Sequence record: OK018184
Strand: one strand, 5' to 3'
Source: Shigella phage CT01
Length of the DNA: 64,000 nucleotides
The notes under the pieces were generated by a model. It did no database searches and had not been told where the DNA came from. It was given only the letters and a program-made list of their open reading frames with translations. Positions 934 through 55,525 of this stretch are shown here, piece by piece (position 1 is the stretch's first letter; every line of letters starts with the position of its first letter). The position numbers and the translations under genes were made by a program.

Positions 934-1292
934 TTAATTTTCCTACAATCACTCACAAACTCTTCCATTGATTCTTTTTCAATATAAGACATGTAGTTAT
1001 TATATTCCTTTAATTGTATTTTGTAATCCTTTTTTCTTTGCCAATTTATTTTAAAATTATCATAATGAAAATATAGCATGGTGCCAAAGAATGAAAATAA
1101 TGAAATCGCTATAGTATAACGAAGTTCACTCCAAACTTCTATTATATTTACTGTGCCGTCAATGTTTAAAATAAGACAGTCAATTAACAATCCAAAAAGA
1201 CTACCCGCAAGAGCTGCAGCCAACGCCACAGCAAAAATTAAAAATGACTCAGGAAGCGAATATTTGACTTTATTTAGTTTTGGCTTTTGCAT
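930..1292 (-). CDS. small membrane protein
   Basis: 120 aa, two hydrophobic helices (…LIFAVALAAALAGSLFGLLI…); coupled to flanking ORFs. Confidence 0.5.
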   Translation of the reverse strand: MQKPKLNKVKYSLPESFLIFAVALAAALAGSLFGLLIDCLILNIDGTVNIIEVWSELRYTIAISLFSFFGTMLYFHYDNFKINWQRKKDYKIQLKEYNNYMSYIEKESMEEFVSDCRKIK

Positions 1293-1687
1293 CGTGATTC
1301 CTTAACAAATTTCATAATTTCATCAAATTCATATGCAGCAAGTTTAAGCTGGTGTTCCTTTTTAATCTTTTTGCACTGTGCTTTCCAATCACGTACGCGT
1401 TTACGATAATGTCTTCCTTGATACCAGTATCCTACCCAATTTACAGGTACTAATAAAAATGGAACTACTAATGGAAGAATTAATACTGACAGAAATATTA
1501 CACCAGATTCAATATCAGTCATAACGTCTATAACCATTCCAATAATCAATAGAATTACAAATGATATAGCTGTCACAGGACCTATTAATACATCGGTAGA
1601 AATTATCTGGTGCTTTGGTTCATACTTCAAAGGTTTACTTGGAAGGTATAGTAATGGCTTTGACATATTCTCTACATTCCTTAACAA
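1274..1687 (-). CDS. small membrane protein
   Basis: 137 aa with long hydrophobic stretches and a basic C-terminus. Confidence 0.5.
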   Translation of the reverse strand: MLRNVENMSKPLLYLPSKPLKYEPKHQIISTDVLIGPVTAISFVILLIIGMVIDVMTDIESGVIFLSVLILPLVVPFLLVPVNWVGYWYQGRHYRKRVRDWKAQCKKIKKEHQLKLAAYEFDEIMKFVKESRCKSQN

Positions 1688-2249
1688 ATTTTTCTAGTAA
1701 TAAATCGCTTTCAAAATTAGGATTTTCCACGAATTTATCAAAAAGATCATCAATAATAGTCAAGATATTCCTTTTATTAAGAATACGCTTATTTTCATAT
1801 TTTGTTTCAGAGTCAACTATAAGAGTAAAGAAATATTTCTTTCCCTGAAATTTTACCGTAGTATCAATATAAAATAAATTTGACTTTTGTAAATTACGTC
1901 TAAACCACGCGTCACTTAAACTATAAACGCCAAGATAATCATAATCGTCATTTAAATAACAAACTGTCCATTCAGGAGAAATGAAATCAGTAAATTCAAC
2001 ATCAAAATCACACGTCAATGAATGAATTGATTCAATACTGTTAATGAGTATTCCAGGACGTATTAAAGACTTTTTACCTCTAGAAAATCTTCCAGAAAGA
2101 CTTTCATCAGTTTCATATGAAGACCCCCAATAGTAATTACGTCCTTCTGCCATACGTTTAAGAGCATTTAGTAATTGGTCTGGAACATCAACCTGTCTTT
2201 GGAACTCTTCAAACATTGAATTGAAATCACTTTGCATTTTCATTTTCAT
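1635..2249 (-). CDS. hypothetical protein (accessory)
   Basis: 204 aa ORF, same strand as the surrounding operon; no motif recognised. Confidence 0.5.
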   Translation of the reverse strand: MKMKMQSDFNSMFEEFQRQVDVPDQLLNALKRMAEGRNYYWGSSYETDESLSGRFSRGKKSLIRPGILINSIESIHSLTCDFDVEFTDFISPEWTVCYLNDDYDYLGVYSLSDAWFRRNLQKSNLFYIDTTVKFQGKKYFFTLIVDSETKYENKRILNKRNILTIIDDLFDKFVENPNFESDLLLEKFVKECREYVKAITIPSK

Positions 2250-2267
2250 TCCTATTTACTCCAAGTA

Positions 2268-2287
2268 TAAGGGGCCGAAGCCCCTTA
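2268..2287 (-). terminator. GC-rich hairpin between accessory genes
   Basis: taaggggccgaagcccctta hairpin between ORFs 1635-2249 and 2291-2884. Confidence 0.35.
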
Positions 2288-2290
2288 TCA

Positions 2291-2884
2291 TTATTTCAGA
2301 GAATTAATGTATTCCTGAACATCGGCAGAGGTAGTTTCAACCCCGGAAATATTACCGTTAAAGGTTTCAACTCGAGCAAGAGTATCTTCAATATCAACCT
2401 TAGTTAGCGCTGCAATTTCAACTACATCATCGGCAGTACTAATTCCAAGGGCATTTGCCGCACGAGTTTCACGGATATATTCCAATTTAACCGCAAGTTC
2501 TTGGCGAGCATCATCTAACTCAACTACTTTCTTGGCGATTTCAATTCGCATTTCAGCATAACCATCAGCTTTAGTAGTCAACTGCTCAGCTGTTCGACGA
2601 TATAGTAAACCGAGCTTAGCATGCATTGTTACATCTTGACCTTCGGAAAGAAGTTTGCGAATTTCACACTCTTTTGATTCGGCTTGTCGATTCTTTTCGA
2701 TAACAAGTTCACGAATACGTTTTTCTTCATTAATAGATTTAACAGAAGCAGTTTTTAGGTCTTTAATTTTATCAAGAAGTTTTGCTGCTGCAGCAGTATA
2801 CTGTTCTTCAACAGATAGATTTTTAGCCATAGCAGAACCAAGTTTAGTGCGAATAAACTCAACAATTTTCTTCAGTGTGTTCAT
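2291..2884 (-). CDS. PspA/IM30-like coiled-coil protein
   Basis: 197 aa, highly helical and charged; by eye resembles the PspA core (…[16 protein letters not shown]… vs PspA …[22 protein letters not shown]…). Confidence 0.45.
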
Positions 2885-2927
2885 AGTATTTCCTTAGGTT
2901 GATTAAAAATTAAAATCTGTGGAAGAA

Positions 2928-3458
2928 TTATATCATGCTATTTAAGAGATGTAAACTATTTTTAATTTTACAAATTCGTTCAGCTTCTTCAACAGCGGCG
3001 GCGATAATGCTTTTAGCTATAGGAGTACTAATACTAGTAGCTTTTACACTTAACACGATTTCTTTATCTTTACCAGGCCAACCCCACGATTTTTCACCGT
3101 GAGTGCCTTTAATTACAGCAGACACCTCAAGTGAGCATCCATTATCATATGTTTTTACATTGACAACCCAAGGTTCACTTTTCTCAATCGGTTTCTCAAT
3201 CGGTTTATCCCAGTAAATATTAAGAATACGTGGGACATCAAATTTGGCAGGACAAATCTTAACTGTAAGACCTTCGCTTTCTAGCCAATTAATAAGAGGG
3301 CGTTCATACAGGCGACGATGTGGGCTTGGGATTCGACAAGCCTTATGTCCGTTGCTTGCGGCTTCACTAAGCTGTTCTAATACCTGCTTTTGCATTATTG
3401 ATAAGATACCATCAAAAGATTTTTCGGAAGTTTCATTCAGTTCGGTATAAAGAGACAT
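2928..3458 (-). CDS. hypothetical protein (accessory)
   Basis: 176 aa ORF; internal PIEKPIEK duplication; early-type promoter motif upstream. Confidence 0.5.
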   Translation of the reverse strand: MSLYTELNETSEKSFDGILSIMQKQVLEQLSEAASNGHKACRIPSPHRRLYERPLINWLESEGLTVKICPAKFDVPRILNIYWDKPIEKPIEKSEPWVVNVKTYDNGCSLEVSAVIKGTHGEKSWGWPGKDKEIVLSVKATSISTPIAKSIIAAAVEEAERICKIKNSLHLLNSMI

Positions 3459-3483
3459 AACAGTTTCCTCAAATTATAGGCTC

Positions 3484-3513
3484 ATAATATCTCAATCATG
3501 AGCCTATGTAAAC
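3484..3513 (-). promoter_or_regulatory. early-type sigma70 promoter (minus strand) within an inverted repeat
   Basis: minus strand reads GTTTACA, 17-nt spacer, TATTAT; overlaps a perfect 10-bp inverted repeat. Confidence 0.4.
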
Positions 3514-3831
3514 TTATTTCATATTATTAAAATATTCTTCTGCGATTTCGTCGTTATCATGGTAAACTTTAGAAGACAGTTTAACATAACCTTCAGCAGT
3601 GAACATGTTAATCACAACCTTTACAGTATACCACTGACCATCTTCATTACCCATTACTGCGTAAGTTTCAAACATCGGATGGTCAGGACCGATAACTTTA
3701 ATATCATTCACTGTACGACCGAAATCTTCTGAAACGCATTTCATAAAGAAGTTGAACAGTTCGCCGTAATTATCCATTTCATTCTCCAAGTTGTTTTTCT
3801 GTATCAGTAGTTGATAGTTGTATAGTACCAT
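3514..3831 (-). CDS. hypothetical protein (accessory)
   Basis: 105 aa ORF on the operon strand. Confidence 0.45.
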   Translation of the reverse strand: MVLYNYQLLIQKNNLENEMDNYGELFNFFMKCVSEDFGRTVNDIKVIGPDHPMFETYAVMGNEDGQWYTVKVVINMFTAEGYVKLSSKVYHDNDEIAEEYFNNMK

Positions 3832-4017
3832 GGAAGAACGGGGATGTAAACCGTTTTGTGAAAAAATTTTTAAAAAGTTTTAGGGAATTCTAGGGCAGGG
3901 ATGGGCAATTAAAAGGTAGGATAATATATTATAAAGGGTATAAACTAAATGATGCCTAGAGAGGTCTGGAAAGGCCTAGATACCAAAAAGCCCTATCATT
4001 TAGATAGGGATTTAAAA

Positions 4018-4506
4018 TTATTTACCTAGTTTAGTTATTATAGCTTCGGCAGCAGCTTTTAGCTTAGATGCAGTGTTAATACGATTTTTAATTTCAGTAT
4101 AAGCATCGCCAAGAACATCAAGGCTATCAGAATAAACACTTACACTATTGCGTTCGCTATTTGAAATAGAACCTTTAGTTTTACGATCAAAATCGGTATA
4201 CACGTCTTGAAGATCACGGGCTGCCTTCTTTGCATCATCCAATGCATCAAGAGCTTTATTCAAAGCATTGACATATTTTTTAGTGTCAAACATATTCTTA
4301 GAAATTTTGAAAAATGCTTTATTGAAATTATTTTCTTGACTCATCGTAAAAGAACTATTATCGATGTTATACATTTCAATAGCTTTAGCTTTCCACTTAA
4401 GAAAATCGCCCCGGTCTTTTGGGTCCAAGTGGAAGAATACTTTAGTAAGATCTGCTTCAGATGGTAATTTTGCTGCTTCGGTTAAAAATTCGGCATAAGT
4501 TTTCAT
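4018..4506 (-). CDS. internal-protein-like protein with capsid targeting sequence
   Basis: 162 aa; N-terminus MKTYAEFLTE matches the T4 internal-protein CTS and ends in an L-x-E site of the kind cut by the gp21 prohead protease. Confidence 0.55.
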   Translation of the reverse strand: MKTYAEFLTEAAKLPSEADLTKVFFHLDPKDRGDFLKWKAKAIEMYNIDNSSFTMSQENNFNKAFFKISKNMFDTKKYVNALNKALDALDDAKKAARDLQDVYTDFDRKTKGSISNSERNSVSVYSDSLDVLGDAYTEIKNRINTASKLKAAAEAIITKLGK

Positions 4507-4591
4507 TTAAAATCCTTGAAATAATTTATTGGTTATTAATTATTTATCACGTTGTTATCATCCATGTTAGCATTCTCTGAGTGATTCAAAC

Positions 4592-4620
4592 TAAAAAGCC
4601 CCAACCTTTCGGTCGGGGCT
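4592..4620 (-). terminator. GC-rich hairpin plus T-run on minus strand
   Basis: agcccc…ggggct stem followed by a T-run on the minus strand. Confidence 0.4.
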
Positions 4621-4624
4621 AAGC

Positions 4625-4764
4625 CTTGCGGCAACCTTGTCGGGGTTCCACCTGCTAAGGCAAGTGTTTGTACGAAACGCCGGGATTCGAACCCGGTTAT
4701 TAAGTAGTTGACGCTACTCAATATTTTTAAAAGGCCATATCTCGACCATATCCGAACGTTCCGT
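4625..4764 (-). ncRNA. tRNA-like structured RNA(s), possibly rnaC/rnaD-like
   Basis: canonical T-arm ccggg-ATTCGAA-cccgg (plus strand 4680-4696) and a 7-bp acceptor-like pairing between 4673-4679 and 4757-4763; no clean anticodon/D arm resolved. Confidence 0.3.
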
Positions 4765-4926
4765 CAAAAACGCTACTCGGCTTACGGCAAAGATATTTCC
4801 TCGAATCGATAATTCGGTGCGCCGTTTCTGCTGTGATAGTAAAGAATCAGAACACAGTAAAACTGTGGGAGAAACTATACTCCAGGGAACATCAGTCCGA
4901 CGACTTACCGGTAGCGACCCGGTTTC

Positions 4927-5277
4927 TTAGTATTCTTTTAAAGCATCAACCTGTCCACGACGTTTACGCCATAAATCAATTACTTCATACGCAGATTCAG
5001 CATTTCGAATTGGACGGCATTTATATAAAGACTTGTGATTTTGATATTGTGTAGATAATGGAATTTTATCTAAAAGGTCTTTACGTTCAAAGTATTCGTA
5101 ACCATCTAAACCAAATGAACGATTTTTGAGAAATTGCCAATGACCGTATTCGTTTTCGACATAAACATAATCTGCATGCTGATAAAGTAAATTAATTACA
5201 CGTTCAGAAATAACAGTGTCATTGTGATTAAAATAGAATGTTAAATCATGAACTACTAAATAAACATTACCTTTCAT
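4927..5277 (-). CDS. hypothetical protein within the tRNA region
   Basis: 116 aa ORF between the small-RNA region and tRNA-Arg; no endonuclease motif seen. Confidence 0.4.
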   Translation of the reverse strand: MKGNVYLVVHDLTFYFNHNDTVISERVINLLYQHADYVYVENEYGHWQFLKNRSFGLDGYEYFERKDLLDKIPLSTQYQNHKSLYKCRPIRNAESAYEVIDLWRKRRGQVDALKEY

Positions 5278-5548: not shown

Positions 5549-5623
5549 TGGTGGCCCTGGGTGGAATTGAACCACCATCTGGCGATTATGAGTCGCTTGC
5601 TTGAACCTTCCAGCTACAGGGCC
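5549..5623 (-). tRNA. tRNA with CAU anticodon (Ile2 or Met), copy 1
   Basis: acceptor ggccctg/cagggcc, T arm ggtgg-aattgaa-ccacc, anticodon loop CUCAUAA; position matches T4 tRNA-Ile. Confidence 0.6.
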
Positions 5624-5624
5624 T

Positions 5625-5700
5625 TGGTGCTGATTGACGGAATCGAACCGCCGACCTTCTCATTACAAGTGAGTTGCTCTACCTACTGAGCTAAATCAGC
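5625..5700 (-). tRNA. tRNA-Thr (UGU), copy 1
   Basis: acceptor gctgatt/aatcagc, anticodon loop CUUGUAA. Confidence 0.7.
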
Positions 5701-5705
5701 AAAAC

Positions 5706-5795
5706 TGGCGGAGGCGATAGGATTTGAACCTATGAGTCGCCGGAGCGACTGCCGGTTTTCAAGACCGGTGCATTAAACCACTCTGCCACGCCTCC
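5706..5795 (-). tRNA. tRNA-Ser (UGA), type II, copy 1
   Basis: acceptor ggaggcg/cgcctcc, long variable arm, anticodon loop CUUGAAA. Confidence 0.7.
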
Positions 5796-5797
5796 AG

Positions 5798-5871
5798 TCT
5801 CCATACAAGGATTTGAACCTTGGACCTCCTGATCCCAAATCAGGCGCTCTACCAAACTGAGCTACACGGAG
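5798..5871 (-). tRNA. tRNA-Pro (UGG), copy 1
   Basis: acceptor ctccata/cacggag (two G-U pairs), anticodon loop UUUGGGA; CCA not encoded. Confidence 0.6.
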
Positions 5872-5881
5872 TAAATTAAAT

Positions 5882-5955
<74 letters not shown>

Positions 5956-5960
5956 AAATT

Positions 5961-6047
5961 TGGTGCGAGAAGTGGGACTCGAACCCACAAGGAAATCATT
6001 CCGCAGCATTTTAAGTGCTGTGCCTTTACCAATTTGACCATTCTCGC
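5961..6047 (-). tRNA. tRNA-Leu (UAA), type II, copy 1
   Basis: acceptor gcgagaa/ttctcgc, T arm gtggg-actcgaa-cccac, long variable arm, anticodon loop CUUAAAA. Confidence 0.7.
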
Positions 6048-6048
6048 G

Positions 6049-6115
6049 CTGGGAATAAAGGACTCGAACCTTTGCATCCTGGAATCAAAATCCAGTGCCT
6101 TACCAATAACTCCCC
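6049..6115 (-). pseudogene. chimeric pseudo-tRNA at duplication junction (tRNA-Gln 3' body fused to tRNA-Tyr 5' end)
   Basis: Gln T arm and anticodon arm intact to 6106, then the sequence switches to the tRNA-Tyr 5' terminus; D-stem 5' strand lost and acceptor strands no longer pair. Confidence 0.6.
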
Positions 6116-6124
6116 AAATTAATT

Positions 6125-6199
6125 TGGTGGCCCTGGGTGGAATTGAACCACCATCTGGCGATTATGAGTCGCTTGCTTGAACCTTCCAGCTACAGGGCC
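6125..6199 (-). tRNA. tRNA with CAU anticodon (Ile2 or Met), copy 2
   Basis: identical to copy 1, offset +576. Confidence 0.6.
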
Positions 6200-6200
6200 T

Positions 6201-6276
6201 TGGTGCTGATTGACGGAATCGAACCGCCGACCTTCTCATTACAAGTGAGTTGCTCTACCTACTGAGCTAAATCAGC
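6201..6276 (-). tRNA. tRNA-Thr (UGU), copy 2
   Basis: identical to copy 1, offset +576. Confidence 0.7.
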
Positions 6277-6281
6277 AAAAC

Positions 6282-6371
6282 TGGCGGAGGCGATAGGATT
6301 TGAACCTATGAGTCGCCGGAGCGACTGCCGGTTTTCAAGACCGGTGCATTAAACCACTCTGCCACGCCTCC
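6282..6371 (-). tRNA. tRNA-Ser (UGA), copy 2
   Basis: identical to copy 1, offset +576. Confidence 0.7.
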
Positions 6372-6373
6372 AG

Positions 6374-6447
6374 TCTCCATACAAGGATTTGAACCTTGGA
6401 CCTCCTGATCCCAAATCAGGCGCTCTACCAAACTGAGCTACACGGAG
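6374..6447 (-). tRNA. tRNA-Pro (UGG), copy 2
   Basis: identical to copy 1, offset +576. Confidence 0.6.
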
Positions 6448-6457
6448 TAAATTAAAT

Positions 6458-6531
<74 letters not shown>

Positions 6532-6536
6532 AAATT

Positions 6537-6623
6537 TGGTGCGAGAAGTGGGACTCGAACCCACAAGGAAATCATTCCGCAGCATTTTAAGTGCTGTGCC
6601 TTTACCAATTTGACCATTCTCGC
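6537..6623 (-). tRNA. tRNA-Leu (UAA), copy 2
   Basis: identical to copy 1, offset +576. Confidence 0.7.
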
Positions 6624-6624
6624 G

Positions 6625-6697
6625 CTGGGAATAAAGGACTCGAACCTTTGCATCCTGGAATCAAAATCCAGTGCCTTACCAACTTGGCTAATTCCCA
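6625..6697 (-). tRNA. tRNA-Gln (UUG), the only intact copy
   Basis: acceptor tgggaat/attccca, T arm aaagg-actcgaa-ccttt, anticodon loop UUUUGAU. Confidence 0.7.
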
Positions 6698-7675: not shown

Positions 7676-7704
7676 TTTATTCTCCTCAGTAGTTGATAGG
7701 GTAA

Positions 7705-7734
7705 TAGTATCACAACTAAAACCCTATGTAAACA
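7705..7734 (-). promoter_or_regulatory. early-type sigma70 promoter (minus strand)
   Basis: minus strand reads GTTTACA, 17-nt spacer, TACTAT; embedded in a 20-bp motif repeated at 8094-8113. Confidence 0.4.
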
Positions 7735-8069: not shown

Positions 8070-8100
8070 ATAGTATCACTACCTCATCAACGTGTAAACA
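8070..8100 (-). promoter_or_regulatory. early-type sigma70 promoter (minus strand) upstream of ipI
   Basis: minus strand reads GTTTACA, 18-nt spacer, TACTAT; same 20-bp motif as at 7728-7747. Confidence 0.4.
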
Positions 8101-55465: not shown

Positions 55466-55525
55466 TTTGTGTTCCTCATGTTATGTCAGTAAAATTATTA
55501 TAACACAACACGAGGGACTTGTAAA

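Follow-up and report, generated by a model that had tools for sequence, protein, structure and literature searches.

The e.5 to e.8 early gene block of Shigella phage CT01 follows that of T4 and carries a variable gene in the e.7 slot

We analyzed 64,000 nucleotides of DNA from Shigella phage CT01 (sequence record OK018184), a stretch that is called the window throughout and is numbered from its first nucleotide, and within it a group of small genes at positions 1635-3831. An earlier note on this DNA had described the group as an accessory cassette of three open reading frames (ORFs) at 1635-2249, 2928-3458, and 3514-3831. All three were found at these coordinates, and all lie on the minus strand, the one adjustment being that the 105-amino acid (aa) reading of the last is probably too long and should be 87 aa. 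The list of ORFs, taken together with annotated relatives, gave a minus-strand gene order of nudE (8-463), e.2 (445-933), e.3 (930-1292), e.4 (1274-1666), e.5 (1635-2249), e.6 (2291-2884), a gene encoding a 176-aa protein (2928-3458), e.8 (3514-3777), a gene encoding a 162-aa protein (4018-4506), and then the small-RNA and tRNA genes.

When positions 1200-4600 were searched by megablast, 664 phage records were matched, nearly all of them from Tequatrovirus, with a top identity of 97.7%. A blastn comparison with the T4 locus revealed collinearity over positions 1-2901 and 3456-4009 at about 94% nucleotide identity, and the sole difference from T4 in the span is a 554-bp module at 2902-3455. The statement that T4 has different small ORFs at this place was not upheld, as the e.5, e.6, and e.8 products are 95% (over 202 aa), 98%, and 99% (86 of 87 residues) identical to those of T4, and only the 176-aa gene is without a T4 counterpart. 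The description as an accessory cassette therefore fits this one gene, which is truly variable, but not the block as a whole. The T4 genes e.5, e.6, and e.8 (NP_049741, NP_049742, and NP_049744, conserved hypothetical early proteins) are like those of the window in order, strand, spacing, and promoters, and the window departs from them by point differences only, plus longer upstream frames in e.5 and e.8. The locus is already known, both in kind and in sequence.

The e.5 orthologue (1635-2249, minus strand) is a 204-aa ORF whose start in T4 corresponds to the second ATG, at 2243; from there the protein has 202 aa, and the frame in the window adds one upstream Met-Lys pair. It matched phrog_2607 over profile positions 2-203 of 203 (E 1e-109), and 32 nt at its 3' end are shared with the start of e.4. 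The gene is placed between e.6 and e.4, the same order as in T4, ime09, wV7, and RB69. The e.6 orthologue (2291-2884, minus strand), which went unmentioned in the earlier note though it lies within the span described there, encodes a helical protein of 197 aa with a full-length match to phrog_1203 and no match in PDB or Pfam.

For the e.8 orthologue (3514-3777, minus strand), the open frame runs on upstream to an ATG at 3831, and positions 1-87 of the 87 in phrog_2678 align with residues 19-105 of the long ORF. Translation probably begins at the ATG at 3777, since T4 e.8 and the PHROG profile both begin at residue 19 and since a GGAG sequence lies 7 nt upstream of that ATG. The ATG at 3831 would be missing from the transcript of the predicted e.8 promoter at 3822-3850, because it falls within the spacer of that promoter, and the 18-codon upstream extension of the frame is probably untranslated.

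These genes had also been described as poorly conserved, which the record counts contradict. With tblastn, e.5 was found in 643 phage records, 502 at no less than 80% identity and the remainder in Mosigvirus at about 48%, and e.8 was found in 596 records, 506 of them at 95% identity or above. Both genes, e.5 and e.8, belong to the most constant genes of the genus.

The e.8 gene of the window is 95% identical in nucleotide sequence to that of the Mosigvirus RB69, and the flanks are 91% identical over 722 nt, whereas the neighboring e.3 to e.5 genes are only about 60% identical; the Mosigvirus moha is without e.8. Because of this near-identity beside the divergence of e.3 to e.5, and the lack of e.8 in moha, we conclude that e.8 and its promoter have recently passed from one genus to another. 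It was also observed that window positions 3372-4089 align with RB69 4282-5000, with e.8, the promoter region, and the first approximately 29 codons of the 176-aa gene 91-95% identical in nucleotide sequence. The pattern indicates a recent lateral exchange between the two genera, with a breakpoint inside the slot gene, of which RB69 retains only an N-terminal domain ORF.

Promoters were sought with the consensus TTTACW-N17-TAYWAT, published for the hyperplastic regions of T4 and PST (PMC4122927). Six matches were found in the 64 kb, all on the minus strand, as compared to 0.32 expected by shuffling, and half of them directly precede e.6, the 176-aa gene, and e.8. The three further exact matches lie elsewhere on the minus strand, at 7704-7732, 8070-8098, and 55497-55525. 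A loose sigma-70 scan, by comparison, barely exceeded chance (30 sites versus 21 expected).

The predicted early promoter of e.6 (2927-2955, minus strand) reads TTTACA-N17-TATAAT with a TG extension, has 11 of 12 consensus matches, and corresponds exactly to the consensus of the promoter-early stem-loop (PeSL) elements of T4 and PST. The final codons of the 176-aa gene, stop codon included, fall within this promoter, which is part of the segment not homologous to T4 and travels with the 176-aa gene. Phage wV7 has an annotated promoter at the equivalent place. The predicted e.8 promoter (3822-3850, minus strand) reads TTTACA-N17-TACTAT, again with a TG extension, and is preceded by an A/T-rich tract.

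The third predicted promoter is part of a composite, PeSL-like element of early promoter and stem-loop at 3476-3512 on the minus strand, with a -35 TTTACA at 3507-3512 and a -10 TATTAT at 3484-3489. The early-type promoter reported for this place at 3484-3513 was recovered as TTTACA-N17-TATTAT at 3484-3512, on the minus strand; it is conserved and drives e.7 in T4, and so does not belong specifically to the 176-aa gene. A 13-bp hairpin at 3476-3507 occupies the spacer and the -10 of the promoter and is followed by a GAGGA ribosome-binding site and an ATG. Its folding energy of -18.8 kcal/mol (z-score, -4.7) was reached by none of 200 shuffles, and one compensatory U:A to C:G change was seen between phage pairs. 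The promoter-hairpin element is kept 3' of e.8 in T4, SH-2, ime09, and the window, and across these phages it leads into three different genes.

Two other hairpins punctuate the block. Between e.6 and e.5 lies an intercistronic hairpin (2267-2288, minus strand) of the form GGGGC-UUCG-GCCCC, with a 9-bp stem, a folding energy of -15.6 kcal/mol (z-score, -2.7), and no T-run after it on the coding strand; the terminator scan lists it on the opposite strand. T4 mRNAs are known to contain hairpins with a C(UUCG)G tetraloop. The terminator scan also revealed, after the 162-aa gene upstream, a terminator-like hairpin with a T-run (3991-4009, minus strand; -10.5 kcal/mol; z-score, -3.6), which marks the start of the e.8 transcription unit. 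The block is thus laid out as short units behind predicted T4-type early promoters, one each before e.8, the slot gene, and e.6, with e.5 and e.4 coming after e.6 by way of the UUCG hairpin and the overlapping stop and start.

The early expression that had been supposed for these genes agrees with the early-type promoters and with data for T4. In the T4 transcriptome and proteome, e.4, e.5, e.7, and e.8 are classed as early in both RNA and protein, and e.6 is classed as early in RNA and middle in protein (PMC9697503 supplement). These classes support early expression and translation of the T4 orthologues, including those of e.5 and e.8 and the T4 gene in the e.7 slot.

The module that distinguishes the window from T4 has sharp limits. 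Homology to T4 stops at 2901/2902, at the e.6 leader, and resumes at 3455/3456, at the start codon behind the promoter-hairpin. The intervening, nonhomologous segment comprises the 176-aa ORF, starting at codon 2, and the promoter that serves e.6, and it replaces T4 e.7 and its promoter; the downstream flank of the module is the conserved e.6 leader. T4 e.7 (NP_049743) and the 176-aa gene are alike in their position between e.8 and e.6 and in the upstream promoter, hairpin, and ribosome-binding site, but the T4 protein has 111 aa and the sequences are unrelated (BLASTP E 7.6). A T4-type e.7 was not found anywhere in the window with tblastn (best E 3.1).

An alignment of four phages revealed that T4, SH-2, ime09, and the window share, after the e.8 stop codon, the arrangement GTTTACA-(hairpin)-TATTAT...GAGGA...ATG. 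Behind this shared element, T4 and SH-2 have e.7, the window has the 176-aa gene, and ime09 has a gene encoding a 132-aa protein. In phage SH-2, e.7 and the 176-aa gene stand one after the other with a promoter for each, and because both coexist in this way, the two genes are separate cassettes rather than alleles. The window has the arrangement of SH-2 minus e.7, with the junction in a shared TGAGGA leader, and T4 has the arrangement of SH-2 minus the 176-aa gene and the promoter after it.

Set against approximately 500 records with a T4-type e.5, counts at 80% identity or more gave 159 records with a T4-type e.7 in the slot, 105 with the 176-aa type, and 54 with the 132-aa type. RB69 has three other small ORFs at the slot, and moha likewise has other small ORFs.

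The above considerations suggested that genes may enter and leave the slot by recombination between the repeated promoter and leader modules, and the mechanism would be the PeSL-mediated modular shuffling published for T4-type genomes (Arbiol et al. 2010, PMC2839356; Comeau et al. 2014, PMC4122927). The PeSL elements of T4 and PST conform to the promoter consensus employed here and adjoin indels (PMC4122927). The element of the window resembles them in its make-up, a consensus early promoter accompanied by a stem-loop and followed by a ribosome-binding site and a start codon, and in its location in a hyperplastic region, precisely at the edge of a segment where close relatives differ by a gene replacement.

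Several points weigh against this mechanism. The stem-loop of the published T4/PST elements lies just upstream of the promoter, whereas that of the window overlaps the spacer and the -10, so that the element can be called PeSL-like only. Folding revealed no hairpin at 2927-2955 or 3822-3850, and in this the two other promoters of the span are unlike PeSL elements. The microhomologies at the junctions are short (3-6 nt), and ordinary illegitimate recombination may account for them. On balance, we favor the interpretation that these genes are the e.5 - e.6 - (e.7 slot) - e.8 segment of the Tequatrovirus region that runs from e to the tRNA genes and is transcribed early and leftward, and we place the probability of the whole explanation, shuffling at the slot included, at roughly 0.8.

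The 176-aa protein (2928-3458, minus strand), which occupies the e.7 slot, belongs to the family named RB32ORF130c in the wV7 annotation and matched phrog_6869 over positions 1-173 of 173 (E 5e-106). Hypothetical proteins of this family occur in RB32, wV7, HY01, SH-2, and many other phages. Full-length homologues are 89-100% identical and lie at the same position, upstream of e.6, as in wV7, SH-2, and Nami, and the protein was found at no less than 80% identity in 105 phage records. The Mosigvirus homologues are about 54% identical and lie in the same neighborhood, and some of them retain only the N-terminal domain.

The tandem PIEKPIEK repeat that had been pointed out in this gene was confirmed with Tandem Repeats Finder at 3180-3206 (minus strand) as a perfect 12-bp unit in 2.2 copies with a 100% match. 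Close relatives have either one copy of the PIEK unit (the 171-172 aa forms) or two. The AlphaFold2 (AF2) model of the protein, with a mean predicted local distance difference test score (pLDDT) of 78.8, has two folded domains, and residues 85-93 of the linker between them have a pLDDT below 50. The N-terminal domain (aa 1-87; 3198-3458, minus strand) is predicted to run helix-strand-helix-strand-strand, and the C-terminal domain (aa 96-168; 2955-3173, minus strand) to have three strands and then a long helix. The PHROGs split the protein in the same sense, with phrog_18312 and phrog_3012 covering the N-terminal part and phrog_8232 the C-terminal part.

The C-terminal part is common to the 176-aa protein and the 132-aa protein of ime09, and their N-terminal parts are unrelated. 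A profile search of 1.84 billion representatives returned 35 proteins, most of which match in the C-terminal domain only, either alone (73-95 aa) or with unrelated N- or C-terminal extensions. No Pfam family was found for the extensions joined to the C-terminal domain, and tblastn and a hidden Markov model (HMM) of the domain detected no paralogue in the window. Its signature comprises WxVxxK, E[VI]SAV, HGxxSWGW, KxIVL, and EAxxICxxKN, and no significant match was found in PDB by sequence or by fold. The 176-aa protein is thus built of two domains that move independently of each other and are connected by a PIEK linker of variable copy number. The N-terminal domain has a small alpha/beta fold with a weak predicted resemblance to R3H/Alba-type nucleic acid-binding domains, and the C-terminal domain is a module spread across phages, with HGxxSWGW as an invariant loop and without a solved relative. 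Very tentatively, the conserved C-terminal domain would confer a common activity, the binding of either a host factor or a small ligand, and the variable partner domain would provide targeting; with similarly low confidence, the protein may be regarded as a nonessential early accessory protein.

We then examined what the searches revealed concerning function. The absence of recognizable motifs that had been reported was borne out, as Pfam, NCBIfam, and PADLOC scans of all the ORFs gave nothing above noise, and the PHROGs matched were only families without an assigned function. The defense-system models of PADLOC-DB did not match e.5, the 176-aa protein, or e.8 at an E of 0.1. Sequence and profile searches of PDB with e.5, e.6, the 176-aa protein, and e.8, and with their alignments, returned nothing significant, and in a Foldseek search of PDB with the 176-aa model, no match reached an E of 0.001 or below (best E 0.27). 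Literature searches found no function for e.5, e.6, e.7, or e.8. Homologues carry the precomputed Pfam accessions PF26862 (the 176-aa family), PF26876 (e.5), and PF26879 (e.8). The record of the close relative phage Nami (MZ502380) labels e.5 as a "putative phosphoserine phosphatase", e.6 as a "host specificity protein", and e.3 as a "putative sulfurtransferase", labels that every profile search left unsupported and that are likely over-annotation. From these searches, no function is assignable to e.5, e.8, or the 176-aa protein.

The proposal that all three ORFs form a poorly conserved cassette, distinct from T4, of host-takeover or anti-defense factors is unlikely. It is in keeping with the lack of a known function for the three ORFs, with their predicted early promoters and the early expression of the T4 orthologues, and with the enrichment of counter-defense genes in variable regions of phage genomes (bioRxiv 10.1101/2023.04.06.535777). 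One distant homologue of the C-terminal domain, P0056, is also fused to a motif like the RecBCD inhibitor gp5.9 of T7 (phrog_6234, E 5e-9), but this is a single metagenomic protein in which the motif spans 25 residues and scores below the Pfam cutoff (23.2 versus 24.5 bits). The near-identity of e.5 and e.8 to their T4 counterparts and their near-universal presence in the genus make them neither T4-distinct nor poorly conserved. In the libraries scanned (Pfam, NCBIfam, PHROGs, PADLOC-DB, and PDB), none of the proteins matched a characterized anti-defense protein, and none of the sequences was present in the supplementary files checked of an accessory-gene screen. An anti-defense role of the genes is a guess with faint hints, namely this one domain fusion and a subsignificant profile match to SAM (S-adenosylmethionine) and SAM-AMP lyases.

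For the 176-aa protein itself, we considered that it might be an early regulator binding RNA or single-stranded DNA through an N-terminal domain of the R3H, Alba, or KhpB type, possibly acting on the neighboring tRNA and small-RNA transcripts or on host mRNA, which we regard as distinctly improbable. The Foldseek matches to R3H, Smr, and Alba-type folds all had an E of at least 0.27 and were not significant, and two-layer alpha/beta folds of this kind are very common. No profile of these domains matched: Pfam R3H (PF01424) hit 0 of 23 family members even at an E of 10, and no other family did so consistently. The Arg-x3-His pair of the R3H signature is Arg-x3-Asn here (ERPLIN), and STKVIE or CANTIE takes its place in the 54%-identical homologues.

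Less probable still, in our estimation highly so, is that the C-terminal domain is a divergent relative of the PII-like phage SAM lyases or SAM-AMP lyases, in which HGxxSWGW would be the equivalent of the T-loop and would bind or cleave SAM or a SAM-derived or nucleotide signal, disarming restriction, BREX, or type III CRISPR. The top three PDB matches of the C-terminal domain profile were all SAM-AMP or SAM lyases (9gad, 9gab, and 9lqd), with subsignificant E values of 0.58-0.74. The lyase and the domain present a strand-loop-strand-helix in the same order (IYVSAVIKP...EWGCP...ETVVL in the one and EVSAVIKG..HG..SWGW...KxIVL in the other), and by eye the alignment is convincing over these elements; pairwise hhalign gave an E of 3.4e-4 at 37% identity in 35 aligned columns. 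The Ser and Trp in this alignment correspond to S50 and W64 of the lyase, which contact the ligand (PMC12255297).

The likeness to the Svi3-3 and Clostridium botulinum (9GAD) lyases is one of a local motif, the Trp-Gly loop, and of the order of secondary structure; the match remains nonsignificant, with an E of about 0.6 against PDB and an hhalign probability of 37.6%. In the C. botulinum enzyme, the catalytic E71 lies at the end of the T-loop, and the monomer has a ferredoxin-like beta-alpha-beta-beta-alpha-beta fold within a PII-like trimer (PMC12255297). Glu71 falls at a column of the C-terminal domain that varies (D, S, T, Q, E, N, and others), with an invariant Lys directly after it. The domain is modeled as three strands and one helix instead of the ferredoxin fold, of which the first strand-helix and the last strand would be missing. 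The SAMase of T3 has no similarity to the C-terminal domain, and the C. botulinum lyase fragment had no relatives in the phage collection, the PHROGs, or Pfam from which a lyase profile could be built. By analogy with the PII-like T-loop, the approximately 75-residue domain might be a widely shuffled counter-defense module whose Trp-rich loop would bind or cleave a SAM-like or nucleotide ligand and which would be paired with varied partners, R3H-like here and the gp5.9-like RecBCD-inhibitor motif elsewhere; this we consider very unlikely.

The reading that A+T-rich DNA left some of these frames open by chance, with no real gene behind them, has a probability close to nil, for only the absence of known domains speaks for it, and it was rejected (and for e.5 and e.8 refuted) on conservation and T4 proteomics: every flagged ORF has a ribosome-binding site and a predicted promoter and matches a full-length phage protein family conserved at the protein level across hundreds of genomes, and the proteome data place T4 e.5 and e.8 in the early class (PMC9697503 supplement).

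A number of observations were made on the neighboring sequence. The 162-aa gene (4018-4506, minus strand) matches phrog_2280, a family without an assigned function, and falls 25 codons short of the 187-aa versions that the closest relatives have. Its product begins MKTYAEFLTEA, which resembles the capsid-targeting leader of the T4 internal proteins (MKTYQEFIAE). Positions 4010-4589, which include this gene, have no T4 counterpart. The adjoining positions 4590-4927 are 90.7% identical to the T4 stretch with the small stable RNAs rnaC and rnaD, and a strong terminator-like hairpin lies within this stretch at 4597-4620.

Farther along, the tRNA cluster at 5549-6697 (minus strand), with 16 tRNA genes, contains a 576-bp tandem duplication in which Met-Thr-Ser-Pro-Gly-Leu occurs twice (5549-6047 and 6125-6623). 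At the end of the first copy, a remnant of tRNA-Gln (6048-6105), cut short, runs into the sequence found ahead of tRNA-Met. The duplication junction maps as two pieces about 577 bp apart in the eight best-matching records listed, and it is contiguous in none of these. The duplication could be real or could be an assembly artifact.

The result is mainly a correction, in that the group of genes is the standard T4 e.5-e.8 block and the family of its variable gene is already present in more than 100 genomes. The plasticity of the slot follows a published mechanism. Two points are of modest value: the locus illustrates cleanly how genes are swapped between promoter boundaries, with one genome that has both cassettes, two single-cassette derivatives, and junctions in the leaders, and the 176-aa protein is seen to be made of two separately mobile domains. 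If it were true that the C-terminal domain module has a counter-defense activity, this would annotate the family across many T4-like and other large phages.

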